Shown here: one piece after another, positions 13,198-41,640 of the stretch
Layout of the letters: each line of letters opens with the position of its first letter
Numbering within the stretch: position 1 is the stretch's first letter
Assembly (NCBI GenBank): GCA_038057125.1
Contig: JBBUDU010000001.1
Coordinates: 997-64,996 of the forward strand
DNA: 64,000 nt
Direction of reading: 5' to 3'
From: Patescibacteria group bacterium
GTDB lineage: Bacteria; Patescibacteriota; Minisyncoccia; Phycocordibacterales; UBA1550
Position numbers and translations under genes: made by a program
Notes under the pieces: model-generated
What the model was told of the DNA's origin: nothing
What the model saw: the letters and a program-made list of their open reading frames with translations, nothing else
The model's database searches: none

Positions 13198-13455
13198 ATG
13201 TATTACACCTACGTTATCGAGAACGACAAAGGTACATGTTATACTGGCAGCACGGAGGATCTACGGAAACGCTTGAGACAGCACAACGAAGGGCGGTCAA
13301 CGTGGACAAAAGGTAAAGGAGTGTGGAAGGTTATTTATTACGAGGCATGTCTTAATGAGCAAGATGCTCGGTCGAGAGAGATGTATTTAAAATCGGGGAT
13401 GGGTAAGCGCTATATAAAAAGTAGACTCAAGCGTTTTCTGTCTCTAACGGGATGA
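13198..13455 (+). CDS. Small stand-alone GIY-YIG nuclease-family protein
   Basis: YTYVIEN...CYTGSTEDLRKRLRQHN...SREMYLK matches the GIY-YIG core. Alternative upstream starts at 13153 and 13171. The stop overlaps the argS ATG. Confidence 0.65.
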   Translation: MYYTYVIENDKGTCYTGSTEDLRKRLRQHNEGRSTWTKGKGVWKVIYYEACLNEQDARSREMYLKSGMGKRYIKSRLKRFLSLTG

Positions 13456-15023: not shown

Positions 15024-15031
15024 AACTCAAA

Positions 15032-15606: not shown

Positions 15607-15627
15607 AATTAAAGTATAATCATCAAC

Positions 15628-17613
15628 ATGATCAAAAAGAATATTTTTACGCTAGTCACTCTTTTGGTAGCTACGGGATTAGTGGTTTACTATACGCAGG
15701 CAACTTCAGAACCAGCAAAGCCGGAAAAAATATATTGGTTTATTCCTGACGGACTCAGAGCGGAGCCCGACATATTTACAATTTTTAAGTGGGCGGAGGA
15801 TGGTAAATTACCAAACCTCAAAAAAATGATGGAAAAAGGCAGTTACGGATATTCAATTCCCGATTTTCCCGGTCATACTCCCGTAAATTTTGCTTCGTTG
15901 CTTACAGGAGCGCATCCTACTGTGCATGGTGTTGCGGACGGTCCAATGCACGTTGAAGGATTTCCGTTGGAAAAGCCGTCTGCTGCTGGATTTTCTTCAG
16001 GAAGCAAAAAAGTCGCTCCGATTTGGAAAGTTTTGGAAGAGGCTGGCAAAAAAGTCGTCTTGCTCTCAATCCCAGGCTCTACCCCGCCAGAGCTTGAAAA
16101 TGGAATAACCATTCGCGGCCGATGGGGAGGTTGGGGTGCTGATACTCCGGCTATCAATTTTGAACCAATGGAAAAATTACCAGAAAGAAAAGAAGCAGGT
16201 AAAGCGTTTAAGCTTTTTTATCTCGGACAAAAATTGACGGAATTTGTTGATAAAAATAACGCCAATGGTTGGGAGAACGCGCCACTATCATTCAGCCAAG
16301 CCAAAGAAGCAAAACTTGAAAGTTATGGATTGCCAATTTATGCCTACATTTATGATTCTACTGATGATCAATCTAAAAATTATGACACCGTTAGAATTTC
16401 TTTGGACAAAAAAACTGAACTAGCGACATTGAAACAGGGTGAAAGAAGCGAGTGGAAAAATGTTTCCCTAAAATGGAAGGAGCAATCATTTGATTCGCAA
16501 GTAAGGATAAAAATTATAAAACTTTGGCCGGAAAGCGCTAATTTTAGAATACGCCTCTTCTTTAATAATGCTAACAGTTTGATAGTAAAACCCGCTGAAG
16601 TTGCCATGGAAATGACCGAAAAAATTGGTCCCATGGTTGACTTTGCGGACAATTGGCCGGCGCAGTTGATCTATGAAGATGAAGACAAAGACACGTTTTT
16701 TGAGGAAGTAACGGAAAGCTTGGAATGGCACAGAAAAGCTGCTGGTTTTATAATCAAACAATACAATCCGGATGCTTTTATTCAAGATACTTATACTCCA
16801 AATCAAATGCTTGAATCTCGTTGGTGGATGCGCTATATAGATAAAAATCATCCTGATTATGCCGGAGAAGAAAAAGAAAAACAGTCATGGGATGAGATTT
16901 TGAAAATGTATCAGGGAATTGACGCGATACTTGGAGAGGCGATGAAAAACGCTGATGAAAAAACGCTGATTGTTCTTTCATCTGATCACGGCGTGATACC
17001 GCTTTACAAACAAGTCCGTATTAACAATTTGTTTGCCCAAAAAGGATGGCTCAAGTTTAGTATTGATGAGAAAACAGGCGAACCGACTATTGATTGGAAA
17101 AACACAAAAGTTATTTACATGAAGATGGCGCACATTTATGTAAATCCTGACGGTCTTGGTGGAAATTGGAAGCGTGGTTCTGGTCCGGAATATGAAAAAT
17201 TGCGAAGAGAAGTTATGAAAGCAGTTTCGGAATTGAAAGATGAAGATGGAACAAACGCTACGGTCCAAACTGTAAAATGGGAAGACGCGCCGAAATATTT
17301 CGAGCTTCCTACGGACAGAGTCGGTGATATTGTGGTAGAAGTAACACCCGGATACCAGATGCAGGAAGAAGTGACCCGCGATAAAGAAATGTTTGTAAAA
17401 GTTTTGCCATCCGGATACAAACAAGGAATAGATCCGAAAGTAAATAAAGGAATGTGGACCCCGTTTGTTATGATGGGTCCCGGTGTTAAAAAAGGGTATG
17501 AATTAAAAGAGCCGATTTCTCACGTAGACCAAATGCCGACAATTCTCAATTTGCTCGGCGTGAAAATTCCTAGCTATGTTCAAGGTAGGGTTCTGGAGGA
17601 AATTTTAAAGTAG
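15628..17613 (+). CDS. Alkaline-phosphatase-superfamily enzyme, nucleotide pyrophosphatase/phosphodiesterase-like
   Basis: N-terminal anchor. Metal/nucleophile motifs FIPDGLRAEP, GHTPVNFASLLTGAHPTVHGV (Thr nucleophile context) and SSDHGV. Confidence 0.7.
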   Translation: MIKKNIFTLVTLLVATGLVVYYTQATSEPAKPEKIYWFIPDGLRAEPDIFTIFKWAEDGKLPNLKKMMEKGSYGYSIPDFPGHTPVNFASLLTGAHPTVHGVADGPMHVEGFPLEKPSAAGFSSGSKKVAPIWKVLEEAGKKVVLLSIPGSTPPELENGITIRGRWGGWGADTPAINFEPMEKLPERKEAGKAFKLFYLGQKLTEFVDKNNANGWENAPLSFSQAKEAKLESYGLPIYAYIYDSTDDQSKNYDTVRISLDKKTELATLKQGERSEWKNVSLKWKEQSFDSQVRIKIIKLWPESANFRIRLFFNNANSLIVKPAEVAMEMTEKIGPMVDFADNWPAQLIYEDEDKDTFFEEVTESLEWHRKAAGFIIKQYNPDAFIQDTYTPNQMLESRWWMRYIDKNHPDYAGEEKEKQSWDEILKMYQGIDAILGEAMKNADEKTLIVLSSDHGVIPLYKQVRINNLFAQKGWLKFSIDEKTGEPTIDWKNTKVIYMKMAHIYVNPDGLGGNWKRGSGPEYEKLRREVMKAVSELKDEDGTNATVQTVKWEDAPKYFELPTDRVGDIVVEVTPGYQMQEEVTRDKEMFVKVLPSGYKQGIDPKVNKGMWTPFVMMGPGVKKGYELKEPISHVDQMPTILNLLGVKIPSYVQGRVLEEILK

Positions 17614-17628
17614 GGCGGATTAATGTTA

Positions 17629-17670
17629 AAATAAACTCGCAATAGAACTTCCACCGCGAGTTTATTTTTT
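17629..17670 (+). terminator. Intrinsic terminator
   Basis: AAATAAACTCGC ... GCGAGTTTATTTTTT. Confidence 0.6.
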
Positions 17671-17673
17671 GGT

Positions 17674-19173
17674 ATGAAAAAAATTATCTTAATAATTATC
17701 GGATTGTTGGTTGTCGGCGTCGGCGGGTACTTTGGATATGCTAAATCTGACAACAATTCTGGTAATGAAAACATATTAACTAAAGAAGAATTAAAGTGTC
17801 CAGATTGTAATCTAGTAATAGTTTCTCTTACAAATACAAGAAAAGACAATGTTGGTATTTATGGGTACGAGCGAGACACGACCCCAAACATAGATAATTT
17901 TTTCCAAAATTCTTTGATTTTTAAGAATGCATTTGCTCCAGCTTCGTGGACACTACCAGTGGCTGTCTCATTTTATACATCCCTTTTTCCTTATACGCAC
18001 GGAGTAATGGACAGGTACGACGGCAGTAAGCTGTCAGATGAATCACCGCTGACTCTTACGGAAATATTAAAGGAAAATGGATATAAAACTGCGGGTTTTA
18101 CTGGTGGCGGGGATTACAATAGAAAGTTTAATTTTAACCGCGGATTTGACATCTATGTAGACGAGCAAAATTATTCCGATTTTGGTGTTGATTATGCCGG
18201 CGGATCTCAAGGACAGTTTGGCGCCGCCTATTTGGGTATTGAGCAATTGGTTCCGCTTGCGTCAGGCTGGCTTAAAGAAAACAAAGAGAACAAAAAATTT
18301 CTTTTACTGCAAGGATTTGACACTCATTGTCCATTTACTCCAAAAGAACCTTTTGATGAAAAGTTTACGGGAAAAAATAAAAGCAACATAGATTATTCAA
18401 CTTGCCTTTGGACATTTGAGCAAACAAAACCTATTTATGAAGACGGCGTGAGGTACTGGATGGTAAAAACCGCCTTCACGAAAGAAGGAATAAAAGATGT
18501 AAAACTTACCGACGTCGACGTCAAACACATGATAGCGCTTTATGACGGAGAAATCGCCCAAGCTGATAATTTTTTGAAAGAGTTTTTTCAAACGGTGAAA
18601 GATTTGGACATTGAGAAAAATACTATTTTTATATTTATGTCTGAGCATGGTGATCTTTTTGGTGAGCATGGTCGGTTTATGCGCGGTGGACCACTAAGGG
18701 GAACTTTTTATGACCCCGTGCTTAACTTCCCACTTTTAATTAAGCATCCAAAAATCAAATATCCAATTAAAATAGACAGCTTGGTTCAAACAGTGGATAT
18801 GATGCCGACGATACTCGACATTTTTGGATTAGAAGATATACAAGGGAACATAAGACAAGGGAAAAGCATACTGCCTGCAATTATTGATGGGGTGGAAGTT
18901 AATAAACATGTCTACGCGGGTTCAAAGTACACCCAGCAAAAAGACAACCCGTTTTTCAAAGGAACATCAAAGATTGAATCAATCAGAAACAAAGAGTGGA
19001 AATTGATAAAAGAAGAGATTTTTGACCAAAATACAAACAAAAAAATAAAAGAATCGTACGAACTCTACAATATTGCCGTGGACAAAAAAGAAGAGAACAA
19101 TCTCATTGGCAAAGAAAAAGGTATCGCACTCACCATGAAGAGTAAGCTACAATCGTGGGTCGATAGTTTTTAA
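17674..19173 (+). CDS. Sulfatase-like hydrolase/transferase (alkaline-phosphatase superfamily)
   Basis: N-terminal anchor. APASWTLPVAVSFYTSLFPYTHGV has Thr where sulfatases have Cys/Ser and lacks the CxPxR Arg. MSEHGDLFGEHG present. Confidence 0.65.
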   Translation: MKKIILIIIGLLVVGVGGYFGYAKSDNNSGNENILTKEELKCPDCNLVIVSLTNTRKDNVGIYGYERDTTPNIDNFFQNSLIFKNAFAPASWTLPVAVSFYTSLFPYTHGVMDRYDGSKLSDESPLTLTEILKENGYKTAGFTGGGDYNRKFNFNRGFDIYVDEQNYSDFGVDYAGGSQGQFGAAYLGIEQLVPLASGWLKENKENKKFLLLQGFDTHCPFTPKEPFDEKFTGKNKSNIDYSTCLWTFEQTKPIYEDGVRYWMVKTAFTKEGIKDVKLTDVDVKHMIALYDGEIAQADNFLKEFFQTVKDLDIEKNTIFIFMSEHGDLFGEHGRFMRGGPLRGTFYDPVLNFPLLIKHPKIKYPIKIDSLVQTVDMMPTILDIFGLEDIQGNIRQGKSILPAIIDGVEVNKHVYAGSKYTQQKDNPFFKGTSKIESIRNKEWKLIKEEIFDQNTNKKIKESYELYNIAVDKKEENNLIGKEKGIALTMKSKLQSWVDSF

Positions 19174-19279
19174 GGATTACGGACCATGTGTTAATTGGTT
19201 GGGAATTATCTACAACCTTTCTGTATTCTATATTCCGACATGATACAATGAAAATGCATACTATATGAGGGAGAAAAAA

Positions 19280-19828
19280 TTAAAGACCAAAATGTTTTCG
19301 TGCAACATCCTCGTTCTCTATTTCAGTTGCAGTGATAACAGAAATATACTTTCTCACGCCAAAGCAATCTCCTAAAAAATCTACCTCCTTTTTACAATCA
19401 AATGGTGTGATAAAAACAGATTTTTGATACGAAAAACAGCTCATGTCCCTAAGCATTTTGTTTAATGAACGCCGCGCGCCGACTTTATTTTCTGGGATAT
19501 CAAACATAATTATTCTCCATTTTTTATCCCATTTTTTATGCTCCTTTAATCCGTTCAACTTTAGATTGTTAAGGCGCGCTTCCCTGCGGCCTTTTTCTGT
19601 GAGAGATGCATAAATTTCTCCACCCCTCTGCTCTATTTTTATGAGCCCTCTTTTTTGCAAGGTTCTTGCTGAGCGTCTTATTTTTAATTTTATTTTTCCA
19701 TCCTCGATGTCTACATATTTGAGTAATTGCGCCAGATTTGGCATGGCGAGAATCATAACAAACGCTCCTGTCACGAGTAGGCTTGTGAGAATGACTTGCG
19801 CTACATCCCCTTTGTTGTATTTTTGCAT
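19280..19828 (-). CDS. PaaX-like protein (wHTH plus Cas2-like fold), paralog 1
   Basis: WDKKWRIIMFDIPENKVGARRSLNKMLRDMSCFSYQKSVFITPF matches the PaaX-family core W-G-W-x-V-x-F-x-x-PE...R...L...G...Q-SVF. Hydrophobic N-terminal segment. Paralog of 26838-27374. Confidence 0.55.
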   Translation of the reverse strand: MQKYNKGDVAQVILTSLLVTGAFVMILAMPNLAQLLKYVDIEDGKIKLKIRRSARTLQKRGLIKIEQRGGEIYASLTEKGRREARLNNLKLNGLKEHKKWDKKWRIIMFDIPENKVGARRSLNKMLRDMSCFSYQKSVFITPFDCKKEVDFLGDCFGVRKYISVITATEIENEDVARKHFGL

Positions 19829-19874
19829 GATAATTCTAAACTAGATGATCATATCTATAATAATAACTCCAGTA

Positions 19875-20312
19875 TACCTATTTTGTCCTATCGGTGTAAA
19901 TAGGTATAGTAGGAAAGTTGTGGGTAAGCGAAGGATGCGAGCGAGCCACTTGTGGTGGTTTGTAAATTTGTCGATTGCCCATGTATCCTGTCTACCTATT
20001 TTGTCCTATCGGTGTAAATAGGTATAGTAGGAAAGTTGTGGATAAGTGAAGGCGGGGATAAGGTGGTGTGGCTGAAGTGCTGTCTGAAGGTTTTTTGCGT
20101 GATTCTTTTTACCCTGTGTTTCTACTGACACTCTTCTTTTTTATGTACCTATTTGTTCCTATCGGAGTGAATAGGTACATAGGGGGGAATTAAGAAGAAT
20201 TAGATGTGGTAATTAAGATTAGATGTGGTTATGCGGGATCCTTCCTACCTTATGTTTCTACTGACACTCTTCTTTTTTATGTACCTATTTTGTCCTATCG
20301 GTGTAAATAGGT
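19875..20312. repeat. Four dispersed copies of a 30-nt hairpin core with pairwise-conserved flanks
   Basis: Core ACCTATTTTGTCCTATCGGTGTAAATAGGT at 19875-19904, 19994-20023 and 20283-20312. Variant ACCTATTTGTTCCTATCGGAGTGAATAGGT at 20147-20176. Copies 1 and 2 share a 29-nt 3' flank; copies 3 and 4 share a 36-nt 5' flank. Confidence 0.9.
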
Positions 20313-20582
20313 ACATAAAAGAAAAAAATAAAAAAAGAGGGGAATGAATGGACCCCGCCGCAAGCGGTGAGGAATTCCTCCGATTAAAATAAAAAAAGAG
20401 GGGATTTAAAATGGGTCAGATTGGGTGGGTGAGCAGGCTTCTCTCCCTCACTTGGACGTAGGGTTTCCAAGTTGGGGGATTTTGGCTTCGCCAAAATCCC
20501 CCATGCACTTGTCCACAGTTACCCGCGCCATATGGCGCAATTTTTCTTTTTACATGATACAATAAAAGCACATAGTATATTT

Positions 20583-23500
20583 ATGCGAAACATTTTCCAT
20601 CACTCTACTGCTTTTATAGCAAGGCATAAGCACCATCATCACTTTATTGTCGCTGTTTTGGCGCTCGTAGTTGCGGGCACTGGTGTATATATGTACCGAC
20701 ACGAGCTTGCACAGGCGGCGACATATACATTTACCCAGACAAGCTGGGCTGGGGGAGTTACGACCGCAACATCAACTCATACTTCCAATCAATCAAATTG
20801 GACACAATACTCTGCTACCTCAACAAATATTACAGCAGGAGCTGGCGGCGTGAGCTTGACATCGACAAGCAAAGTTGCGGGGGATGACGGAGTTGCCCTC
20901 TCCGCCCTCGCGACTCCCACTACTGCATCGCTGAATTCAGGGCCTCGGGGTATCACCACAAGCCCCGACGGCACTTCGGTGTATGCGAGGTCATACGACA
21001 CCATTAATATGTACTCCAGGAACACTAGCACCGGCGCCTTGACGGCGCTCGCTACCCCCACCATCGCGGCGGCGGGAGATCCTTTCGGCATCACCGTTTC
21101 CCCCGATGGCATCTCGGTGTACGCTGTGCTTGCTGGGAATGCGTCTGTCGCCATGTACTCCCGCGACACATCCACTGGCGCTTTGACTGCCCTCGGCACA
21201 CCAACTATTGCAACGGAGTCGGATCCCCTTGACATCACTATTTCCCCCGATGGAACATCAGTGTATACGGTGAACAACGCTTCTAGCACAATCTCCATGT
21301 ATTCCCGCGATACTTCCACTGGCGCCTTGACCGCCCTCGGCACCCCCACCATCGCGGCAGGGGATCCAACAGGCATTACCATCTCTCCCGACGGCACCTC
21401 GGTATATGTTGCGAATTACAGTGGAAACACCGTCTCTATGTATTCCCGCAACATGTCCACCGGCGCCCTCACCGCCCTCGCTACCCCCACCATCGCGGCA
21501 GGGTCATATCCATACGGTATCATCATAAGTGCTGACGGTATTTCAGTGTATGCGACGAACAATGGTGGAGACACCGTCTCCATGTACTCCAGAAACACTG
21601 GCACAGGCGCCTTGACCGCCCTCGCCACTCCGACTATCGCGACAGGGACGACACCTATAGGCCTTTTCATTTCACTTGACGGCACCTCGGTATATGTTGC
21701 GAACAACAGTGGAAACACCGTCTCTATGTACTCCAGGAACACTAGCACCGGCGCCTTGACGGCGCTCGCTACCCCCACCATCGCGGCAGGGACGAATCCA
21801 AGAGGCATTACCATCTCGCCCGACGGCACTTCGGTGTATGTGACGAACTACAACTCTGGCACCATCTCAATGTACTCCCGCAGTGCCTATGGTGGCGCGC
21901 TTGGTTTTGCGGCGGGGACATTTGCGAGTACAGAGGTTTCTTTTTGGGCGGGAGCTTCGTCGAGCGTGGGACTAGCACAAACCACAACCAACCTCAATGT
22001 TATACACCAGAGCGGAAATCTCTCCAAAATTACCACATCTGGGACAGTAAGCACGACCTCGGTTGGAGTCACTTATCCTAACGCCCTCATTTTTGGCACC
22101 GACGGCAATCTTTTCGTAGCGAACTCTGGAGGAAACACGATTCGAAAAGTCACCCCCGGAGGGACCGTCACTACTTTTGCAACAGTAGGCGCTGGCCCTA
22201 ACGGCCCTGCCTTTGACGCATCTGGCAATCTCTACACAGCAAACTACGACGATAACACCGTCTCCAAAATCACCCCCGCCGGCGCTGTTACCACTTTTGC
22301 AACAGTAGGCGCTGGCCCTAGATACCTCGCCTTTGACACCACCGGCAATCTCTATACGGCGAACTATTCCTCTAGTACAATCTCTAAAATTACCCCCGCT
22401 GGTGCCACCACCACTTTTGCAACAGTAGGCGCTGGCCCTTACAGCCTTGCTTTTGACGCATCTGGCAATCTCTACACAGCAAACTACGACGCTAACACCG
22501 TCTCCAAAATCACCCCCGCCGGCGCTGTTACCACTTTTGCAACAGGATTTAATTGTCCCAGTTCCTTTGCATTTGATACAGCAGGTACCCTGCTTGTCGG
22601 AAACTATTGCGATGGCGTTATCTCCAAAGTCACCACTGGAGGAGTGACTTCAACATTCGTGACAATAGAGACCAACCCCCGCGCCTCCACTTTTGATAAG
22701 GTGTACGCTTCCTCTGGCACATTTACCTCCGCGGTAATCAATACGGGTGTGGAGTCTTACTTCTCCACGCTTGCATATACAACGACTCTAAACGGTCAAA
22801 CGATTACGGTTGACGCCCGCGCTGGGAATACAGCAACTCCCGATGGCACATGGACTTCATGGCAGACAGGCATCGCAAGCGGTGGAAGCATTTCCGGACT
22901 TTCATACAATAGATACATTCAATACCGTGCGAACTTTTCTACTTCAGATACGGCAGTCACACCTACGCTCAACAGTGTGACCATCAACTACGGCCAGTAC
23001 GCTTTGAGCGGAGACCTTACTTCATCCAAGTATGATACAGAAGCCACAGCAAACCTGATTTCGAATGTTCTTTGGTCTGCATCCAGCACTTCTGCTTCTG
23101 AGACAGTAAGGTTTCAAGTACGATCGTCCTCAGCCGGCACCACATGGACTAACTGGTGCGGACCGGCAACCGCTTGCGACGGCACCGACTATTTTACCGT
23201 AAGCACCGGTGTGTCAGGTGGAATTGTTTCAGGTCACCCACTTCGCTCGGACAGTAATGACAGATTTTTACAATACAAAGCGTTCCTTGCTTCAGCCGGT
23301 GGTGCCACCCCAACACTCACATCGGCTACTGTACAGTATGTGGTAAACGCGCCGCCTGTGATTTCGAACATAACGGCATCACAGGGAAGCACAGGTGCCG
23401 TAACAGTTGGTTACGATTTAGCAGATTCAGATAATGCCATTGGGAACATCGTTGATGTTACCTTGCAATACTGTACGACAAACTGTTCTGCTGGTTCGGA

Positions 23501-26500
23501 AGTCTGGGCGGATGCTGTGACGGTGTCGGGGAGTGTCGGCACTGGAGTAGCTTTGGGGACAGCAAGAAGTATCTCGTGGACAGCTTCCACCGACTACGCG
23601 TCGCAATACAAATCCAACACGCAAAAAATCCGAATCATCGCAGACGATCGCGATGCGGCTAATAACCTTGGATATGGTACTTCTCCGACATTTACTTTAG
23701 ACACGACCGTTCCAGTTATTACCGTTTCTAAACTCGATTCATCAACAGGAGGGAATGCAGTCGGTACTATTTCCTTGACTTCAAACGACGACAGCACGCT
23801 TCAATATAGAATTTGTAATGATAATACATTTCCTTCTTCTGACACACAGGGGAACTCGTGCGCATTTACTACCCTTGCTGCAAGTCCGATTGCAACAACG
23901 ACTATTGCGTGGATTCCCACAGGCGCGCCATCTCACGAATTTGCATATCTTCAAGTCCGCGATGCATACGGTAATGTGACCGCGCAGACTCTCGTTGCTC
24001 CTGCGATGCCGGCAGATTTTTCTTATAATGATGTTTCCAACACTACGACTGGGGTATATCGTGAATTTTTATCATGGGTGCCATTTGTCGCCACCACTTC
24101 ATCTACTTTCGGTTCTTACAAGGTGTACCACTCACTCGATAACTTCGCGACCTCCACTCTTCTCGCAACCATCACCGATTCCTCAGTAAACTATTACCTT
24201 CACACTGTTACAACAGCGACAACTTCACTGCAGTACTACAGAGTGACATCAGTGAACGCTCTTGGAAACGTTTCGAACTTCACAGCCATCATTTCTGATA
24301 TTCCGGATGGAACAGGAGGAGTGGATACAACTCCGCCACACATTCCGATTGCTGGCATCGCCACACCAACAGTAGGAAATTCGTCAGCGAATATTACCTT
24401 TAGCACGTACACCGACACCTCTCTTTCAGTCGGCGAGCTTGCGACATCAACAGTGTTCTACGCTTCATACACAGGGGCTGTTCCTGCTTCGTGCCCAGGT
24501 ACTCCAAAGGTGTCTACGAATACCTACACGGTGAACCACAGCGTTTATCTTACTGGGCTTACACCGTCAACGCAGTATTACTATTGTGTCGTCGCAAGAG
24601 ATATTTCTGGCAATGTGAGCGCGGCAACGACAGCTGTCGGCGGAACATTCACCACCGTGAGCGGACCACTCATTACCAATGTCACCGAGCGCGAAATTAC
24701 CGACATCTCTGCGCTCATTTTTTGGAATACAAACACAAGCTCTGATTCAAAAGTATATTTTTCTGCCACATCGGCTGGGGTAAATGGCGCAACTCCGGTT
24801 AATGGATCTGTGGTTACTGTGGCCGGATCCGATGGCGCATACCAACACCAAATAGGGCTCACTGGTTTGAGCGCAGGACAGACATATTATTATAAAGTTA
24901 CTTCTACTGATACTGCTGGCACCCCCATCACCACGACGAACGACAACAATGGGCAGTACTATAGTTTTGTAACCCTTCGTGACACTACCCCGCCGACTGT
25001 TTCCGGCATTGCCACACCTGTACTCTCCTCAAATGCCGCGGTTATTATTTGGCAGACAAATGAACCTTCAACTACTCAAGTGTTGTGGGGAACCGCGTCT
25101 AGCACTTATACGCGCAATACTGTTATCGACACAACAAAATCTATTTACCACATTGTGACTTTGAGCAGTGGAACATTGGACACTGGATCAGTATCGCAAG
25201 TGCTTACACCTGAAACCACTTATTATTTTGTGGTGAGATCTGCCGATGATGCTGGGAACTTGACCACTTCATCGCAAAGCACGCTTACGACTCCGGCAAC
25301 AGGAAGTGTAACCATAACGACTATTAATGTAGTAAGTAGCGCAAGCTCTGGTTCGGATACAAAAGACACGACCGTTCCGATAATTTCTAATATAAAAGTA
25401 TCTGACATTACACCATTTGCCGCCGTGGTGAAGTTTGATACGGATGAGGATACTGTGGGGTTTGTCGAGTATGGTGCCGCTACTACATACGGCGAGACAG
25501 CGGGCGACAAAACCATGGCAAGATCTCACACCGTAAGACTTCGCGGTCTTACTCTCGGTACCGAATACCACATCAAGGCGACTGCGGTTGATAAGTCCGG
25601 CAATGCCGGCACATCCGGAGACCAAACATTCAAGACCACATTCCTTTCAGAAAACCTGAAAGACATCGCAAACATCGAGAACATTGAAGCCTTCCAGAAA
25701 GAAATTGAAGCCGCCATTGAATCAATTCTCCCATCACTCGTACCGCCGTTTGTTTCAAAGCCGCAGGTCTTGGACATCACGGAAAACTCTGCAACCATTA
25801 CATTCAAAACAAACATCAAAGCATTCCCTGTTGTCGTGTACGCGGACGATGGTTCATACGACGAAAAGAAAGACAATCCTTACACTGGTGAAATCTCGGA
25901 CACCGCTAAAAAATCAGCCGAACATAGTCTTAAGCTCACTGGTCTCAAGGGTAATACAAAGTACCATATTCAAGCTCGTGCATTTTCTCTTCCGAGAGTT
26001 ATCGGAAAGTCTGCCGATGTCACTTTCATTACAAAGGCATCAAAGATCGCCGGCTCTATAGTAGAACGCAAAAAGGATTCATTTACTGTAGTGTGGACGA
26101 CGGATCAGCCAACTTCTTCTATCGTTGAATTTAAGAATGTAAGGTCTGGCATCATAGGGCAGAAGACCAATGAAGCGCTTCGCACATCTCACTCTATGAA
26201 GATTGAGAACCTTCCTCCTGGCACTGCGTACATAGTAAACATTTCGGGAAAGACAGAACAGGGAAATATTGCCGAAGCCGGAAGCTCGATTTCCGTTACC
26301 ACATCGCGCGATGTTACACCGCCGGTGATAACAGGATTCAAAGTTGACAATGCGTTAATCCCGGGCCGAACCGACCGCATTCAAACCATCGTTTCGTGGA
26401 CTACAGACGAGCCTTCAAATTCTACCGCTTACTATGAGGAAGGTACTGGCACAAAAGGAGACACGAAAGAGCTCGCGAACAAGAACTCAGAACTCACTTC

Positions 26501-26702
26501 GTATGTCACCAACCACGCAATCATTCTCCCAAGTTTGAAGCCGGGCACCATCTATCGCCTAAAGGTTACTTCGAGCGACGACAGCGGAAATCTCGGTTCC
26601 TTTGGCCCGCGCACTATCATCACTCCTCAACAGACCGCATCCATTACCGACATTATCTTTAAGAACTTCGAAGATTCATTCAAATTCTTGAAGAAGATTT
26701 AA
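20583..26702 (+). CDS. Giant (~2040 aa) membrane-anchored surface protein with beta-propeller and FN3/PAP-N-like repeats
   Basis: Anchor FIVAVLALVVAGTGVYMY. About 8 repeats GITISPDGTSVYVANxxxNTVSMYSRNTSTGALTAL (YVTN/lactonase-like). About 5-6 NHL-like blades GPxxxAFDASGNLYTANYxxNTVSKITPAG. Seven to eight modules of the form TVxWxTxEPSxSxVxYG...HxVxLTGLxPxTxYxY. Start set at ATG 20583; the listed ORF begins at TTG 20472. Confidence 0.8.
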   Translation: MRNIFHHSTAFIARHKHHHHFIVAVLALVVAGTGVYMYRHELAQAATYTFTQTSWAGGVTTATSTHTSNQSNWTQYSATSTNITAGAGGVSLTSTSKVAGDDGVALSALATPTTASLNSGPRGITTSPDGTSVYARSYDTINMYSRNTSTGALTALATPTIAAAGDPFGITVSPDGISVYAVLAGNASVAMYSRDTSTGALTALGTPTIATESDPLDITISPDGTSVYTVNNASSTISMYSRDTSTGALTALGTPTIAAGDPTGITISPDGTSVYVANYSGNTVSMYSRNMSTGALTALATPTIAAGSYPYGIIISADGISVYATNNGGDTVSMYSRNTGTGALTALATPTIATGTTPIGLFISLDGTSVYVANNSGNTVSMYSRNTSTGALTALATPTIAAGTNPRGITISPDGTSVYVTNYNSGTISMYSRSAYGGALGFAAGTFASTEVSFWAGASSSVGLAQTTTNLNVIHQSGNLSKITTSGTVSTTSVGVTYPNALIFGTDGNLFVANSGGNTIRKVTPGGTVTTFATVGAGPNGPAFDASGNLYTANYDDNTVSKITPAGAVTTFATVGAGPRYLAFDTTGNLYTANYSSSTISKITPAGATTTFATVGAGPYSLAFDASGNLYTANYDANTVSKITPAGAVTTFATGFNCPSSFAFDTAGTLLVGNYCDGVISKVTTGGVTSTFVTIETNPRASTFDKVYASSGTFTSAVINTGVESYFSTLAYTTTLNGQTITVDARAGNTATPDGTWTSWQTGIASGGSISGLSYNRYIQYRANFSTSDTAVTPTLNSVTINYGQYALSGDLTSSKYDTEATANLISNVLWSASSTSASETVRFQVRSSSAGTTWTNWCGPATACDGTDYFTVSTGVSGGIVSGHPLRSDSNDRFLQYKAFLASAGGATPTLTSATVQYVVNAPPVISNITASQGSTGAVTVGYDLADSDNAIGNIVDVTLQYCTTNCSAGSEVWADAVTVSGSVGTGVALGTARSISWTASTDYASQYKSNTQKIRIIADDRDAANNLGYGTSPTFTLDTTVPVITVSKLDSSTGGNAVGTISLTSNDDSTLQYRICNDNTFPSSDTQGNSCAFTTLAASPIATTTIAWIPTGAPSHEFAYLQVRDAYGNVTAQTLVAPAMPADFSYNDVSNTTTGVYREFLSWVPFVATTSSTFGSYKVYHSLDNFATSTLLATITDSSVNYYLHTVTTATTSLQYYRVTSVNALGNVSNFTAIISDIPDGTGGVDTTPPHIPIAGIATPTVGNSSANITFSTYTDTSLSVGELATSTVFYASYTGAVPASCPGTPKVSTNTYTVNHSVYLTGLTPSTQYYYCVVARDISGNVSAATTAVGGTFTTVSGPLITNVTEREITDISALIFWNTNTSSDSKVYFSATSAGVNGATPVNGSVVTVAGSDGAYQHQIGLTGLSAGQTYYYKVTSTDTAGTPITTTNDNNGQYYSFVTLRDTTPPTVSGIATPVLSSNAAVIIWQTNEPSTTQVLWGTASSTYTRNTVIDTTKSIYHIVTLSSGTLDTGSVSQVLTPETTYYFVVRSADDAGNLTTSSQSTLTTPATGSVTITTINVVSSASSGSDTKDTTVPIISNIKVSDITPFAAVVKFDTDEDTVGFVEYGAATTYGETAGDKTMARSHTVRLRGLTLGTEYHIKATAVDKSGNAGTSGDQTFKTTFLSENLKDIANIENIEAFQKEIEAAIESILPSLVPPFVSKPQVLDITENSATITFKTNIKAFPVVVYADDGSYDEKKDNPYTGEISDTAKKSAEHSLKLTGLKGNTKYHIQARAFSLPRVIGKSADVTFITKASKIAGSIVERKKDSFTVVWTTDQPTSSIVEFKNVRSGIIGQKTNEALRTSHSMKIENLPPGTAYIVNISGKTEQGNIAEAGSSISVTTSRDVTPPVITGFKVDNALIPGRTDRIQTIVSWTTDEPSNSTAYYEEGTGTKGDTKELANKNSELTSYVTNHAIILPSLKPGTIYRLKVTSSDDSGNLGSFGPRTIITPQQTASITDIIFKNFEDSFKFLKKI

Positions 26703-26733
26703 AAAAAGGGGTGGTAAATAAAGACAGACAGCG

Positions 26734-26775
26734 CTCACTAAAATAAACCGCCATATGGCGGTTTATTTTAGTGAG
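26734..26775 (+). terminator. Terminator-like perfect hairpin after the giant gene
   Basis: CTCACTAAAATAAACCGCCATATGGCGGTTTATTTTAGTGAG. Confidence 0.6.
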
Positions 26776-26793
26776 TTAGTCAAGACAGTACGC

Positions 26794-26837
26794 ACTGTAC
26801 ACGTATAAAAACCTATAGTACTATATACGTGTACAGT
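26794..26837. repeat. Palindromic element abutting the start codon of PaaX-like paralog 2
   Basis: Arms ACTGTACACGTATA / TATACGTGTACAGT around AAAACCTATAGTACTA. About 70 percent identical, in register, to the element at 27387-27436. Confidence 0.85.
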
Positions 26838-27374
26838 ATGAAAAAGTATCAACGCGATGAAATAAAAGAAATAATCCTCTCAACCCTCCTTGTTGCGGGA
26901 GTGATCGCTATCGCTGTTACTATGCCGAATGCGGTGCAACTTTTCAAATACTTCAAACCCAAGAACACATATGATCGCACGCGCATAAAGCAGTCAGTCT
27001 ATCGTCTGGAAAAACAAGGATTTATAAAAAGAAAAGATGCAGGGTATGTTCTTACGGCGAGTGGGACAAAGAAGGCAATCTATTACAAAATAGAATCTAT
27101 GAAGATTGTTCGTCAAAAGGAATGGGATGGTAAATGGCGCATAGTGATGTTTGATGTTCCGGAAGAAAGGAAAATGGCTCGACGCGCAATACACAACGCG
27201 CTCAAAGAACTGGGTTGCGTACAATATCAGAAGTCTGTTTTTGTAACACCTTTTCCGTGCAAAAACGAGGTTGATTTTATAGGAGATTATTTTGGGGTAC
27301 GGGGGAATATTCGAATTATTATTGCAAGTGAGATTGAAGGAGGGAAAATCCTCCGAAATGCCTTTTGCTTGTAA
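26838..27374 (+). CDS. PaaX-like protein (wHTH plus Cas2-like fold), paralog 2
   Basis: WDGKWRIVMFDVPEERKMARRAIHNALKELGCVQYQKSVFVTPF. Collinear similarity to 19280-19828 over its whole length. ATG 26838 preferred over GTG 26829. Confidence 0.55.
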   Translation: MKKYQRDEIKEIILSTLLVAGVIAIAVTMPNAVQLFKYFKPKNTYDRTRIKQSVYRLEKQGFIKRKDAGYVLTASGTKKAIYYKIESMKIVRQKEWDGKWRIVMFDVPEERKMARRAIHNALKELGCVQYQKSVFVTPFPCKNEVDFIGDYFGVRGNIRIIIASEIEGGKILRNAFCL

Positions 27375-27386
27375 CTCAATGTCCTA

Positions 27387-27436
27387 CCCCATGCACACGT
27401 ATAGGAACCTATAGGTTCCTATACGTGTGCATGGGG
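27387..27436. repeat. 50-bp perfect palindrome centred on CTATAG
   Basis: CCCCATGCACACGTATAGGAACCTA|TAGGTTCCTATACGTGTGCATGGGG. Confidence 0.95.
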
Positions 27437-27523: not shown

Positions 27524-30500
27524 ATGGCTGATAAAGAAAAAGATACAAAAAATTTGGCGACAGAGGCAGTTCAAGAACCTCAATCGAAAAAACTTTCGGA
27601 TATTTCGATGCGCGAGGAAGAAACTCTTGCGCGCTGGCAGTCCGCGCACATTTTTGAAAAGTCGCTTGACCAAACGAAAGGAGGCGAGGAGTTTATTTTT
27701 TACGACGGTCCGCCATTTGCGACCGGTCTTCCACACTATGGGCACTTTCTTCCAAACTTGATGAAAGATGTGATTCCACGCTACCAGACGATGCGCGGAC
27801 GATATGTTCGACGTGTGTGGGGTTGGGATTGCCACGGGCTCCCAATTGAAAATTTAATTGAAAAAGAGCTCGGGCTCGGGCACAAAAAAGACATAGAGGA
27901 ATATGGTCTTGAAAAGTTTAACGAAGCCTGTCGCGAGTCAGTGTATCGCTATGATACTGAATGGAAAAAAATGATTCCGCGTATTGGGCGATGGGTAGAT
28001 ATGGAACATTCGTACAGTACGATGAATGCAAACTACACCGAGAGCGTGTGGTGGGCTTTTAAAACACTATACGAAAAAGGTCTGGTGTATCAAGGGTTCA
28101 AGTCGATGCACATTTGCCCAAGATGCGAGACGACACTTTCAAACAACGAAATCGCGCTTGGATACAAAGATATTACTGATATTTCGGTAACGATAAAATT
28201 TGAATTGGTTGATGAACCCGGTACATTTATTTTAGCTTGGACGACAACCCCATGGACATTACCCGGCAATGTCGCGCTTGCGGTAAACCATGAGGAGGAG
28301 TATGTGAAAGTTTCCGTTGGAGATGAAAAATATATTTTAGCAAATACGCGCGCGGGAATCGTGTTTGCCGGCAAAGTATATACTGTCCTCGAGCAGATTA
28401 ATGGCGCTGACCTTGTTGGTAAACCATACAAACCTATTTTTGATTATTATTCGCAAGACAATACGATTAAAAATCATAAAAACGGTTGGAAAATATATGC
28501 GGGGGATTTTGTAACGATGGATAGTGGTACCGGCGTGGTGCATATCGCGCCAGCATTCGGCGAGGACGACATGGCGCTTGGTGTCCGTGAAAATTTGCCG
28601 TTTGTGCAACATGTTGCAATGGACGGCACGATGAAAAGTGAAGTGCGTGATTTCGCAGGTGCTTCGGTAAAGCCAAAAGGAGAAAAAAATGACAGCCATC
28701 AGGTGACAGACATCTTGATTATTAAACACCTCGCGCATGCAGGAGCGCTTTTTTCAAAAGAAAAAATAATTCACGCATATCCGCACTGCTGGCGTTGCGA
28801 TACACCACTTTTAAATTACGCGGCAGAGTCATGGTTTGTAAAAGTGCCTGACTTAAAAGACAAACTCCTCGCAGAAAATGCAAAGACATCATGGGTACCA
28901 AAAAATATGCGTGATGGTCGTTTTGGTAAGTGGCTCGAAGGCGCGCGCGATTGGGCTATTTCTCGTTCGCGTTTTTGGGGCGCGCCTATTCCCGTATGGC
29001 AGTGTGAAAAATGCAATGAGCGCAAAGTTTTCGGCTCGCGAGAGGAGCTTTCTGAACACACAAAAAAATCCGGTAATAGATATATTGCAATGCGACACGG
29101 CGAGGCCGAGAGCAATGCGCGCGGTATTGTGAGCTCAAAGATTGACGGAAGCACTTCGTACGGCTTAACGGAAAAGGGACGTCTGTCAGCAGAAAAAGCA
29201 GGCCTCGAGCTTTCAGGAGACAAGATTGACATCATAATCACTTCGCCTTTTGCGCGTACCAAGCAAACTGCAGAAATTGTCGCCAAGGCCATTGGTCTTG
29301 ATGCGCAAAAGATTATTGTCGATGAGCGCGTCAAAGAAATCGATACTGGTATCTTTGACGGAAAACCAATTGCCTTATATCGCGAACACTTCGCTTCTAT
29401 AGAGGAAAAATTTACTAAGCGTCCGGAAAGTGGCGAAAACTTGCTTGATGTAAAGCGTCGTGTAATGTCACTTATATCTGAACTTGAAAACGAACATAAA
29501 GGGAAGACTATTCTGATTGTAACGCACGAATATCCGATATGGATGCTTGCTTCCGGGTCACGTGGTGCTACTGTAAATGAATCTGTCGCGATGCGCGGAG
29601 ACAAAGAAGATTTTCTCGCAACGAGCGGCGTTCTTGATATAAAGTACGCGCCATTTCCGCACAATGCGGATTTTGAATTTGATCTCCATTTGCCGTACAT
29701 AGATACGGTTGAAGTGTCGTGTAAATGCGGAGGGCATATGTCACGCGTGCCATATGTTTTTGACTGCTGGTTTGAGTCCGGCTCGATGCCGTACGCACAG
29801 TTTCATTACCCGTTTGAAAACAAAGAGCTTTTTGAAAAGAATTTTCCAGCAAACTTTATTGCCGAGGGTGTCGACCAAACGCGCGGATGGTTTTATTCTC
29901 TAATGGTTCTTTCCGTTGGACTTTTTGGCAAGGCGCCGTTTAAGAATGTTATCGTGAACGGAATGGTACTCGCGGAGGACGGACAAAAAATGTCGAAGAG
30001 CCGAAAGAATTATCCAGACCCGTGGGATATTTTGAATCAATACGGCGCTGATGCTGTGCGGTATTATTTGCTTTCATCACCAATTGTGCATGCCGAAGAC
30101 CTCGCGTTTCTTCCGCGTGGCGTTGATGAGGTGGTGAAGAAATTTATTATGCGTTTATCCAATGTACTCTCATTTTATGAGCTTTACCGCGTAGAAGAAG
30201 ACACTACAATACATACTCGCGCGCCTAATGTTCTTGACCAGTGGATACTCGCGCGCCTGAAAGAAGTTACTTGTGAAGAAACCGCGGCACTCGACGCGTA
30301 CGAGATCGACCGTGCGGTGAAGCCTCTCAGTCTTTTTGTGGACGACCTATCGACATGGTATCTTCGTCGTTCGCGCGATCGATTTAAGTCTGAAGATGCG
30401 AATGACCGTGCTACCGCTCTCGCGACCACTCGCATTGTGCTTCTTGAGTTTTCAAAACTTATCGCTCCGGTAATGCCGTTTCTCGCGGACCATATTTATT

Positions 30501-35395: not shown

Positions 35396-35400
35396 GTCAT

Positions 35401-41635: not shown

Positions 41636-41640
41636 AAATA

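Follow-up and report, generated by a model that had tools for sequence, protein, structure and literature searches.

The window, i.e. the whole analysed stretch of 64 kb, contains between argS (upstream) and ileS (downstream), near an AT-rich block (positions 15000-19900, GC 0.35-0.41), a giant surface-protein gene of 6.1 kb flanked by two genes for paralogous proteins of ~180 aa which face away from it. A first-pass annotation had described this arrangement together with four hairpins between paralog 1 and the giant gene and two homologous palindromes flanking paralog 2. All of these elements were recovered where it had placed them. The features of the locus are as follows.

19280-19828, minus strand: paralog 1, ORF of 182 aa; short PaaX-like protein with wHTH and Cas2-like PaaX_M domain, without the PaaX C-terminal domain
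19871-19900, minus strand: best promoter-like site of paralog 1; -35 TTTACA, 18-nt spacer, -10 TATACT; overlaps hairpin 1
19875-19906, unstranded: paralog-1-type site 1, TACCTATTTTGTCCTATCGGTGTAAATAGGTA; centre ~62 nt upstream of the paralog 1 start codon
19993-20024, unstranded: paralog-1-type site 2, tandem duplicate of site 1 (67-nt unit, 94% identical, 118-nt period)
20146-20177, unstranded: paralog-1-type site 3, degenerate, TACCTATTTGTTCCTATCGGAGTGAATAGGTA; inside an 89-nt duplicated unit
20282-20313, unstranded: paralog-1-type site 4, duplicate of the site 3 unit (88% identical, 136-nt period)
20525-20548, plus strand: terminator-like hairpin, GCGCCATATGGCGC plus T-run, between the site array and the giant gene promoter
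20549-20578, plus strand: giant gene promoter-like site; TTTACA, 16-18 nt spacer, CATAGT or TAGTAT; ends 5-7 nt before the ATG
20583-26702, plus strand: giant gene, 2039 aa from the ATG; orthologs in L007, L019, L048 and L084
26734-26775, unstranded: bidirectional intrinsic terminator of the giant gene, perfect 21+21 palindrome with A-run and T-run
26796-26835, unstranded: paralog-2 upstream palindrome, TGTACACGTATAAAAACCTATAGTACTATATACGTGTACA; centre 22 nt before the ATG
26838-27374, plus strand: paralog 2, 178 aa, short PaaX-like protein
27387-27436, unstranded: paralog-2 downstream palindrome, perfect 25+25; box ACACGTATA as in the upstream copy, centre CCTATAGG

The two paralogs share 41% identity end to end (BLASTP, E 4e-53), and both contain the PaaX-family core motifs quoted by the first-pass annotation. 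With 63 bits for paralog 1 and 69 bits for paralog 2 they were found above the gathering cut-off of 24 bits of the Pfam model PF20803 (PaaX_M), and the match of paralog 1 to TIGR02277 was restricted to model positions 22-138 of 279. Cas2 models were matched weakly by both proteins, borderline in the case of TIGR01573 and paralog 2 (25.0 against a cut-off of 24.5). Using the AlphaFold model of paralog 2 (pLDDT 81), Foldseek yielded E. coli PaaX (8a39) as top full-length match, followed by Rv0674 and Cas2 chains. Profile and structure searches thus agree with the proposed PaaX-like nature of the proteins (wHTH plus Cas2-like fold). Both genes belong to a large CPR/Patescibacteria family of minimal PaaX-like proteins of ~180 aa, some members of which are annotated as Cas2 by NCBI. 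No published description of a PaaX-like protein combined with a palindrome family was found, and the CPR family of palindrome-bracketed PaaX-like proteins is apparently new to the literature.

In the giant gene product, a hydrophobic anchor at the N-terminus is accompanied by beta-propeller repeats of the lactonase/NHL type and numerous fn3 / Pur_ac_phosph_N domains; the repeat region of the gene differs between strains. The start of the gene is most likely the ATG at 20583 and not the TTG at 20472: in the related strain L001 the putative N-terminal extension contains an indel of 1 nt, and gene calling in L001 and L002 placed the start at the ATG. The perfect palindrome at 26734-26775, with its A-run and T-run, is the terminator of the giant gene and not a family-type site; counterparts of it are located behind the giant-gene orthologs of L007, L048 and L084.

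Three of the four paralog-1 hairpins are exact 32-mers (0 expected by chance). Hairpin 1 falls between the -35 and -10 hexamers of the best paralog 1 promoter-like site, which reached 10 of 12 consensus matches in a consensus scan (a match, not proof of function). The site 1 type was present upstream of all paralog-1 orthologs examined (L048, L084, L088, L089, L090). At paralog 2, the distal boxes ACACGTAT of the upstream palindrome are intact and its spacer is asymmetric, and the conserved ileS promoter motif follows the downstream palindrome at a distance of ~75 nt. The paralog-2 orthologs in L007 and L036 have the same ACACGTAT box, and the motif common to both paralog-2 palindromes showed no further occurrence in the 64 kb window. 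The paralog 2 cassette is of the standard form, with the giant gene's terminator on one side and the ileS promoter on the other. Paralog 1 is a cassette which lost its downstream palindrome and whose upstream site was amplified to four by two tandem duplications.

Using a flank-sharing score of at least 18 as cutoff, 70% of 80 Patescibacteria family genes were found to share flanking sequence in the form of two copies of one long palindrome, compared to 2.5% of 1060 control genes. The association with palindromic repeats noticed for the two paralogs hence extends to their homologs. The upstream copy is equivalent to the downstream one, each arm measuring ~21 nt, and the two copies of one gene lie ~600-730 bp apart; the palindromes are commonly 40-70 bp long with zero mismatches. 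The start codon follows the centre of the upstream copy at a median distance of 33 nt, and several upstream palindromes overlap the start codon. T-runs were absent from the downstream copies, so a plain terminator role for these is unsupported. Helical phasing between the two copies was not significant (best p about 0.05, uncorrected). The neighbours of the family genes are diverse housekeeping genes; no cas1 was seen among them and no paa genes were found nearby. The sampled loci revealed up to six paralogs per genome (median within-genome identity 53%), and a second family gene within 10 kb at only 5 of 80 loci. No carriers were found among viral contigs, phages and plasmids. A ligand-sensing domain is absent from the family proteins.

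The two paralogs had been proposed as possible regulators of the giant gene, with hairpin array and palindromes as operators; such control could work e.g. by looping or silencing. The four paralog-1 sites are spread over the whole 754-nt region preceding the giant gene, and sites 1 and 2 also hold plus-strand promoter-like hexamers facing it. Furthermore, paralog-1 orthologs (71% identity in L048 and L084) adjoin the giant-gene ortholog in all 3 genomes with enough context (window, L048, L084), in L084 with additional tandem sites beside it. However, the ortholog in L048 and L084 is located at the giant gene's 3' end and convergent with it, and conserved local synteny can account for the adjacency. 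The nearest site lies ~240 nt upstream of the giant gene's own promoter-like site, with the terminator-like hairpin between them. The paralog-2 palindromes are the ordinary family signature, and paralog-2-type orthologs are found elsewhere, upstream of argS in L007, L009, L013 and L019. An association with large genes is not family-wide either, as just 6 of 160 neighbours comprise at least 1000 aa (background 1.4%). Given these counts, the few paired loci and the giant gene's own promoter-like site and terminator-like hairpin, a dedicated module is quite improbable. The giant gene is a neighbour of the cassettes, not a demonstrated target, and its bracketing represents two cassettes in its flanking intergenic slots.

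When the four arms contributed by the two palindromes of a gene were compared, conservation was found at positions -16 to -11 and -5 to -1, and variation in the spacer from -10 to -6. The near-palindromic centre is conserved family-wide, with C[T/G][A/G] and [T/C][A/C]G as its two halves (usually CTATAG), which vary independently. The distal boxes are paralog-specific, box types map onto protein subfamilies, and palindrome divergence follows protein divergence (Mantel p = 0.001). The proteins of L029 and L038 are 91% identical, with 6 of their 17 differences located in recognition helix 3 (p = 0.005), and their boxes have drifted apart (5 of 12 positions identical). Those of L031 and L038 (85% identical) do not differ in helix 3, and here the box has been retained (11 of 12). 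Among the protein segments, helix 3 showed the lowest (0.45) and the Cas2-like domain the highest conservation (0.67), with D106, E109, R115, Q131, S133 and C141 invariant in 67 diverse members. A variable helix 3 and a conserved Cas2-like domain match the variable boxes and the conserved centre. These sequence relationships support the palindromes as predicted cognate binding sites of the paralogs. The operator function suggested by the first-pass annotation is retained to this extent, as changes in helix 3 go along with changes in the distal box of the predicted sites, while control of the giant gene is unsupported.

Symmetry is kept even at freely varying positions, with 26 both-arm changes versus ~0.5 expected under independent arm evolution, and the symmetry of each copy extends beyond the shared core into locus-specific sequence. 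Compensatory changes of both arms preserve pairing, which would suit an RNA-level system, in which the palindromes would be 5'/3' UTR hairpins, bound or processed by the Cas2-like, RRM-like domain, and the protein-hairpin contact would control mRNA stability or translation. The overlap of several upstream palindromes with the start codon is in agreement with this, and some Cas2 and VapD relatives are ribonucleases. Nevertheless, the would-be loop corresponds to the conserved, near-palindromic centre with its independent halves, which fits a symmetric dimer on duplex DNA, and a helix 3 following an 8-bp box is typical of major-groove DNA reading. Solo palindromes, moreover, show no dependence on strand, lying between convergent genes as well as in a divergent promoter region, and Rfam families remained unmatched, save spurious miRNA hits to perfect hairpins. 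We regard an RNA-level system as highly doubtful.

Outside the locus, the following elements were identified in the window.

10356-10423, unstranded: solo family-type palindrome with CTATAG centre and arms CCCCTAACAATTATTT, between thyA (minus strand) and a dCMP deaminase gene (plus strand)
35392-35463, unstranded: solo paralog-1-type palindrome, core TTACCTATTTGTTCCTATAGGAACAAATAGGTAA; perfect fifth copy, 15 kb away
53093-53749: genuine RAYT-like gene with own palindromes, different from those of the family

The solo at 35392-35463, located between an upstream gene's terminator and the promoter of a peptidase M16 gene, corrects the first-pass annotation, as a paralog-1 site also exists outside the locus. 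Its slot in L048 and L084 holds family-type palindromes of other specificity classes. For the palindrome at 10356-10423 no cognate gene was found within the window. A gene-independent census counted 64 extragenic solo copies versus 15 gene-flanking copies. In the genome loci, the solo density was ~1 per 50 kb. One 30-mer made up 86 of 128 sites, and identical 30-mers in unrelated contexts indicate copying, not de novo operator evolution. Solos showed a preference for the 3' ends of genes and for intergenic regions of convergent type (20 of 58 versus 14% background, p = 2e-4) and lie at a median of 89 nt from start codons, compared to 33 nt for the putatively autoregulatory copies. In related genomes the same intergenic slot contains different palindrome classes or cassettes in either orientation; the giant-ileS slot, for example, is held by different family members. 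The mobile or recombining cassette, offered as the alternative by the first-pass annotation, gains support from this exchange.

These data resemble a REPIN/RAYT-like partnership on a new scaffold, with the palindromes as non-autonomous mobile DNA and the wHTH-Cas2-like protein as putative enzyme. The enzyme would nick or cleave the conserved centre, so that palindromes are copied, moved or inverted, and the gene flanked by its own repeats would serve as master copy and be inherited vertically. The published RAYT checklist (PMC3337134) is mirrored by a short gene flanked by cognate palindromes, a single repeat type for each gene, several distinct genes in one genome, and solos which outnumber flanking copies and prefer 3' ends. 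The slot turnover, the invariant residues of the Cas2-like domain, paralog 2 just reaching curated Cas2 cut-offs and the kept and extended symmetry, which would fit a templated or hairpin-based process, point in the same direction. On the other hand, canonical PaaX employs its Cas2-like domain for dimerisation, copy numbers look modest, and orthologs hold the same slot in several genomes, e.g. the paralog-2 type upstream of argS. In the one recent gene duplicate, L029/L038, DNA similarity is confined exactly to the coding sequence, which gives no visible sign that the palindromes were copied along with it. No empty-versus-filled site pairs were found between close strains, three strains of this organism being identical at all sites, and the missing carriers on viral and plasmid DNA also argue against mobility. 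Overall, such a partnership appears possible, yet unlikely.

We favour, with a probability of roughly 55%, autoregulated site-specific DNA-binding proteins on a truncated PaaX scaffold, each with its own copied palindrome family, a logic akin to REP/RAYT but with an unrelated protein. A family member, in which an N-terminal winged helix is joined to a Cas2-like dimerisation domain and the C-terminal effector-binding domain is missing, would bind its private ~40 bp palindrome, most likely as a dimer. Recognition helix 3 would read the two paralog-specific distal boxes 11-16 bp from the centre, and the conserved Cas2-like core presumably contacts the family-wide conserved centre. In the standard unit (palindrome, gene, palindrome) the upstream copy over the gene's own promoter region may mediate autorepression by promoter occlusion, like PaaX at Px. 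At copies after the gene and at solos between transcription units, mostly after gene 3' ends, the bound protein could act as boundary or roadblock. The palindrome bracketing accompanies the protein family, which indicates self-contained protein-repeat units and not dedicated giant-gene switches. Counted against autoregulated proteins were sites far longer and more perfect than an operator requires, the upkeep of symmetry at free positions and its locus-specific extension, the solo bias to 3' ends and convergent regions, the greater distance of solos from start codons, the copied 30-mers, the downstream copies without T-runs, the non-significant phasing and the lack of a ligand-sensing domain.

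Among known systems, PaaX is the phenylacetyl-CoA-responsive repressor of paa operons. The family shares with it the winged helix followed by the Cas2-like central domain, as seen from PF20803 and 8a39. Its operator logic of widely spaced inverted boxes is also alike, the E. coli PaaX operator being TGATTC-N27-GAATCA (PMC9493321). PaaX autorepression occurs by steric hindrance/promoter occlusion at the Px promoter (PMC9493321), and the upstream copy at the family genes' own promoter region is consistent with this. In contrast, the family proteins comprise ~180 aa compared to ~300 for PaaX, lack the PaaX_C effector domain and score 31-41 bits versus the TIGR02277 cut-off of 264. They have no nearby paa genes, several paralogs per genome with a private specificity each, near-perfect palindromes of 40-70 bp which bracket the gene and are dispersed elsewhere, and invariant Cas2-type acidic residues (FD.PE motif).

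With REP/REPIN-RAYT systems the family has in common the ~0.5 kb gene flanked by cognate palindromic repeats, the one-to-one relation of gene subfamily and repeat type, several distinct genes per genome, extragenic solos enriched at gene 3' ends and largely vertically inherited gene positions. However, the protein is not an HUH/Y1 transposase, and to our knowledge no transposition chemistry is known for the wHTH-Cas2-like fold. The family repeats are single long perfect palindromes with a CTATAG-type centre, whereas those of RAYTs are GTAG- or CGTC-tagged imperfect hairpins or REP doublets, and the family copy numbers appear much lower. Cas2 and VapD-type nucleases share the ferredoxin-like Cas2 fold of the C-terminal half (Foldseek probability 0.93-1.0 with several Cas2 chains), the invariant Asp on the N-terminal beta-strand and the Q.SVF-type motif. 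The family domain differs in that it is fused to a wHTH and its Cas2 profile scores are just borderline. A role as CRISPR adaptation subunit is very unlikely. Finally, repressors encoded between two of their own operators, such as lambda CI with OL and OR, differ in that the family sites are also dispersed as solos and that their helical phasing was not significant (best p about 0.05, uncorrected). They are alike in the gene enclosed by two equivalent sites, here ~600-730 bp apart; if bound dimers bridged the two, the gene could be looped out and its autoregulation tightened.

The ORF map, together with an identity of 41% across the full length (E 4e-53), confirmed the claim of the first-pass annotation that two paralogous genes of ~180 aa flank the 6.1-kb giant surface-protein gene and face outward:

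19280-19828, minus strand: paralog 1, winged helix plus Cas2-like domain, 182 aa
26838-27374, plus strand: paralog 2, winged helix plus Cas2-like domain, 178 aa

The same annotation had called both proteins PaaX-like, and the profile search agreed with it. PF20803 (PaaX_M, the Cas2-like central domain) was passed by both with 63.0 and 69.4 bits against a cut-off of 24. TIGR02277 aligned only with the N-terminal and central portion of the model (positions 22-138 of 279), and the scores of 31-41 bits did not reach those of a full-length PaaX equivalog (cut-off 264.55). The Pfam model of the PaaX N-terminus gave no match for the paralogs at E <= 0.1, and none was obtained with PaaX_C, the C-terminal helical effector domain for phenylacetyl-CoA, the proteins stopping at 178-182 aa. 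An AlphaFold model (28 homologs, pLDDT 81) showed a three-helix winged helix with a beta-hairpin, followed by a beta-alpha-beta-beta-alpha-beta domain. Using Foldseek, the best full-length matches were E. coli PaaX (8a39; 184 columns aligned) and Rv0674, and many Cas2 chains matched the C-terminal half. An N-terminal winged-helix DNA-binding domain is thus present by the TIGR02277 alignment, the AlphaFold model and Foldseek. Cas2 profiles matched with their first 35-40 model positions only, for paralog 2 just above the cut-offs (TIGR01573 25.0 versus 24.5, PF09827 24.1 versus 23.8) and for paralog 1 below both (22.6 and 21.3). The Pfam matches of both proteins were confined to PaaX_M and Cas2, with no Y1_Tnp, and no significant sequence-level relative of the family was found in the PDB (best E 0.06). 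A hydrophobic N-terminal segment of ~20 residues (Kyte-Doolittle at least 1.6) with a conserved Pro-Asn end was observed in 57 of 67 members; it covers residues 12-30 of paralog 2 and 9-27 of paralog 1, where the AlphaFold confidence is low. This segment, which we take to correspond to helix 1 and strand 1 of the E. coli PaaX winged helix, could be a membrane anchor tethering bound DNA or else helix 1 of the winged helix, buried in the fold.

With a family profile, 80 loci were collected on contigs from one genome per species. At most of them the homolog was enclosed by two copies of one long palindrome, the upstream copy centred at a median of 33 nt before the start codon, the downstream copy at a median of 48 nt past the stop codon, and the two copies of a gene lay 596-734 bp apart. 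Sequence shared from flank to flank (score at least 18) was found for 70% of the family genes versus 2.5% of 1060 control genes from the same loci, in line with the association of homologs with palindromic repeats that had been proposed. The arms varied from gene to gene with a conserved centre, CTATAG in relatives from Yonathbacteria and Paceibacteria and CGATCG, CGGTCG or GCGGCCGC in remoter classes. In the window itself, the four hairpins and the two homologous palindromes described in the first pass were found in place, far beyond chance. Because bracketing is a signature of the protein family, the palindrome pair of paralog 2 is the ordinary family arrangement. The paralog-1 hairpin is a degenerate form of the perfect palindrome TATACCTATTTACATCTATAGATGTAAATAGGTATA flanking a 71%-identical ortholog (locus L048); TACCTATT...AAATAGGTA arms accompanied every paralog-1 ortholog examined. 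The four paralog-1 sites, arrayed between that gene and the giant gene, arose by two tandem duplications, one of a 67-nt and one of an 89-nt unit, and no convincing small ORF was seen in this 754-nt hairpin region. The paralog-1 ortholog of a second relative, rc(9726-10880) of L084, i.e. L084 9750-10760, has two downstream cognate palindromes ~125 nt apart whose outer flanks are mutually inverted repeats, and a fourfold tandem GTGTAACTTG repeat lies beside its upstream palindrome copy.

Upstream and downstream copies were statistically indistinguishable. A T-run of at least 4 followed 9% of each, and the downstream palindrome is therefore more than a plain intrinsic terminator or something else altogether. 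For helical phasing between the copies of a gene there was a non-significant hint (best R = 0.28, p ~0.05 at 10.6 bp, uncorrected). Comparison with known RNA families yielded only spurious miRNA-model matches to perfect hairpins, far under the gathering scores. That the palindromes act as RNA hairpins we consider very improbable.

For the anatomy of the sites, the four arms of each gene's two palindromes were aligned on the centre. Within a gene, positions -16 to -11 (the gene-specific distal box) and -5 to -1 (the centre) were nearly invariant, while the spacer at -10 to -6 varied, and the conserved distal box and centre would represent the footprint of two contact regions per half-site. The distal boxes on both arms are separated by ~20-22 bp. 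Box types mapped to protein subfamilies, and protein divergence correlated with palindrome divergence (Mantel p = 0.001). Two family proteins of one genome (L029 and L038), 91% identical, differ at 17 positions, of which 6 belong to recognition helix 3 with its 20 residues (p = 0.005); here the distal boxes had diverged (5/12 identical). Two members from different genomes (L031 and L038), only 85% identical, showed no difference in helix 3 and ten in the wing, and the box was kept (11/12 identical). These two comparisons constitute a natural experiment and provide the cleanest evidence that the protein probably reads its palindrome. Across 67 diverse members G76, W96, F105, D106, E109, R115, Q131, S133 and C141 were invariant; helix 3 was the least and the Cas2-like domain the most conserved segment, which matches variable boxes around a conserved centre. 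Where the two palindromes of a gene differed, both arms had changed together 26 times versus ~0.5 expected under independent arm evolution; therefore, the symmetry itself is maintained or regenerated. Selection for hairpin or cruciform formation, or templated repair from arm to arm, could account for its upkeep.

The giant gene had to be delimited anew, since L001, from a strain close to the window organism, has a 1-nt indel within what had been taken for an N-terminal extension, and the start codon chosen by the gene callers corresponds to the ATG at 20583. This gives coordinates of 20583-26702 for the giant gene, with 754 nt of upstream intergenic DNA. Further features of the window are:

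20525-20538: terminator-like hairpin, preceding the giant gene's promoter-like site, ~240 nt downstream of the nearest paralog-1 site
13150-13455: small GIY-YIG nuclease ORF (PF01541, 61 bits), overlapping the argS start
10356-10423: solo family-type palindrome (no cognate gene alongside), CTATAG centre, arms CCCCTAACAATTATTT, between thyA and the divergently oriented dCMP deaminase gene
35392-35463: solo perfect paralog-1-type palindrome at a distance of 15 kb from paralog 1, with a terminator on one side and the peptidase M16 promoter on the other

It had been raised as one possibility that the two paralogs control the giant gene through the repeats, to be checked by whether homologs elsewhere likewise neighbour giant surface genes. 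This was not borne out. Neighbours of at least 1000 aa amounted to 6/160 versus a background of 1.4%, with no family-wide association, and the giant gene has its own promoter-like site, stopping 5-7 nt ahead of its ATG. The best promoter-like site of paralog 1 (10/12 matches) places hairpin 1 between the -35 TTTACA and the -10 TATACT. Pairs of family genes no more than 10 kb apart occurred at 5/80 loci. Scanning 70 neighbours with promoters adjoining a palindrome gave ArgRS (6), class I aminoacyl-tRNA synthetases (5), peptidase M16 (3) and many singletons, i.e. diverse housekeeping genes and no conserved functional partner. In favor of the module, paralog-1 orthologs adjoined the giant-gene ortholog in 3/3 genomes with enough context, in L048 and L084 at its 3' end and convergent; conserved local synteny is sufficient to explain this adjacency. 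We regard control of the giant gene by the pair as highly improbable. The two genes are instead two instances of a widespread protein-palindrome partnership in CPR bacteria, and caution is advised, as two similar "regulators" bracketing a gene can be a by-product of the placement of cassettes in intergenic slots. Between strains of the same population the N-terminal beta-propeller repeat region of the giant gene (window 20900-22700; periods of 144 nt and 120 nt) varied in length and arrangement, with a product of 2135 aa in L001 (3458-9865) versus 2079 aa in L002, suggesting rapid variation of the surface-protein repeats. The contig of a third such strain (L003) breaks immediately upstream of paralog 2.

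The gene order was conserved in relatives (thymidylate kinase, argS, ... giant gene, ileS, recO, ... peptidase M16), whereas cassettes, as a rule a palindrome, a family gene and a second palindrome, were not fixed in place on this backbone. Orthologs of paralog 2 (61-62% identity, with the ACACGTAT box of paralog 2) were found upstream of argS in L007, L013, L019 and L009; the slot upstream of argS in the window contained no cassette, no remnant and no solo palindrome. Here, the GIY-YIG ORF sits between argS and the conserved argS promoter motif GGCGTGGTATGCTCATTT, which in L007, L013 and L019 lies directly upstream of argS without that ORF. The slot between giant gene and ileS was occupied by paralog 2 (plus strand) in the window, by an only 34% identical member (plus strand) in L007 and by the paralog-1 ortholog (minus strand) in L048 and L084, always between the intrinsic terminator of the giant gene and the conserved ileS promoter motif TTTGTGGTATTCTGA...ATG. 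A 44-nt direct repeat (19238-19281 and 20552-20595; 73% identical, the first 12 nt identical), resembling the promoter and start of the giant gene, brackets the entire paralog-1 module of gene and four sites. The 12-mer common to both repeats had 2 occurrences versus 0.39 expected, which is marginal, as 4% of shuffles reach that number. The repeat could be the scar of a duplication-deletion in which paralog 1, originally 3' of the giant gene, came to lie 5' of it and lost its downstream palindrome. Paralog 1 also lies at the right edge of an AT-rich block (15000-19900; GC 0.35-0.41 versus ~0.45-0.49 elsewhere) encoding a 200-aa protein without Pfam match, a phosphodiesterase-family and a sulfatase-family protein. 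In L007 and L019 the stretch from argS to the giant-gene ortholog contains no homolog of any of the three genes, which gives the block the look of an inserted island. In ileS (27524-31069) a histidine-phosphatase domain (His_Phos_1, PF00300) is inserted between the class I synthetase segments, as in L084.

Family-type palindromes were also dispersed as solos. For the one at 10356-10423 no cognate protein is encoded in the window, and L013 carries different family-type solos on other sides of the thyA and dCMP deaminase genes. In L048 and L084 the palindromes in the peptidase M16 slot are of the family type but belong to other specificity classes; different species carried different repeat classes or cassettes in the same slot. 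In the 80 genome loci (roughly 1.3 Mb) ~25 solos were counted, 16 in co-directional, 7 in convergent and 2 in divergent intergenic regions. When metagenome contigs were scanned for ACGTATANNNNNCTATAGNNNNNTATACGT regardless of the presence of a family gene, at least 119 stretches matched. Among the matches listed there were 128 sites, 64 of them solo, 15 next to a family gene and 49 at contig edges, and one 30-mer made up 86 of the 128. Dereplicated intergenic solos among these listed matches fell between convergent genes in 20/58 cases versus 14% background (p = 2e-4), were more distant from the following start codon (median 89 nt) than the presumed autoregulatory copies are, and each extended its perfect palindromy ~10 bp further per side in locus-specific sequence. 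Identical 30-40-bp cores in unrelated contexts are impossible by point mutation, and we therefore infer that they were copied. A perfect palindrome of 35+35 nt at 41634-41703, between convergent genes, combines a GC-rich core with long runs of A and of T; it resembles a bidirectional terminator of unusual length and does not belong to the family type.

We favor, with a probability of roughly 0.55 for the combined claim, that the proteins would be autoregulated and bind duplex DNA with a specificity set by helix 3, and that extra palindrome copies would form boundaries between transcription units. As the main rival, and distinctly less probable, the Cas2-like domain might be an active nuclease propagating the palindromes in the manner of REPIN-RAYT systems. 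A pair of filled and empty sites between close strains was not found, neither were carriers of the family among viruses and phages in IMG/VR or INPHARED, and plasmids contained only remote relatives of canonical PaaX. Spelled out, and just as doubtful, the wHTH-Cas2-like proteins might be the active enzymes behind a kind of palindromic mobile or self-copying DNA that has so far gone unrecognised in CPR bacteria, with a winged-helix-guided Cas2-type nuclease in place of the HUH transposase as a functional analogue of REPIN-RAYT. A cut at the CTATAG-type centre might, on the same tentative footing, be the step by which palindromes, and the cassettes between them, are seeded, extended, inverted or relocated. 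Should this hold, it would offer a concrete picture of how a pre-CRISPR Cas2-like nuclease acted on DNA. Searching for another mobilising enzyme, palindrome-bracketed genes outside the family (SHMT, ATPase, unknowns, ordinary IS transposases) provided no consistent candidate.

Returning to the favored reading of autoregulated DNA binding, the partnership is widespread: the family comprises 2,560 clusters at 50% identity (E <= 1e-10), with up to six copies per genome in the sampled loci. CPR/Patescibacteria have tiny genomes and few recognisable regulators, yet harbor this large PaaX-like family, whose members are labelled hypothetical protein, PaaX or Cas2 at NCBI; in the literature we found no published description of the family or its palindromes. 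The pairing of each protein with a private palindrome corrects the Cas2 and PaaX annotations, and it makes the family a source of orthogonal pairs of protein and DNA site in which the specificity helix can be identified. It also raises the question whether a Cas2-fold protein maintains or mobilises palindromic repeats independently of CRISPR and HUH transposases.

Compared with known systems, the family shares with PaaX the N-terminal winged helix and the central Cas2-like PaaX_M domain. The PaaX operator of E. coli, TGATTC-N27-GAATCA (PMC9493321), has widely spaced inverted boxes like the predicted sites of the family, with a gap of N27 versus ~20-22 bp. The paralogs differ from PaaX in lacking its C-terminal domain, equivalog score and genomic context, with no paa (phenylacetate catabolic) genes among the 70 scanned neighbours or the neighbours in the window, and are for these reasons termed PaaX-like and not PaaX. 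By fold and operator geometry they are truncated PaaX relatives. The invariant Asp and Glu of the first strand are kept. However, Cas2 is a stand-alone protein of ~90-100 aa encoded beside cas1 and a CRISPR array, while the family members are wHTH fusions of 180 aa; no cas genes flank either paralog in the window, and Cas1 was absent from the 25 most frequent Pfam families of the 70 scanned neighbours. Since they are fusions and their neighbours provide no cas context, they are functionally not Cas2. A RAYT-like gene for an IS200-like Y1 transposase of 218 aa (PF01797, 35.7 bits) is present in the window at 53093-53749 with its own palindromes at 53019-53054 and 53758-53821 (CATAGGACTCCCCTATG...) in the classical REP/RAYT-type layout, unrelated in sequence to those of the PaaX-like family; a homolog (25% identity) lies next to the giant-gene ortholog in L048. 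Although the IS200/IS605-like HUH/Y1 transposase which defines REPIN-RAYT systems is absent from the PaaX-like family, these systems, by the feature checklist taken from PMC3337134, are the most similar in logic: a short gene with flanking cognate palindromes, a single repeat class for each gene, several distinct genes in the same genome, and extragenic copies at the 3' ends of genes.
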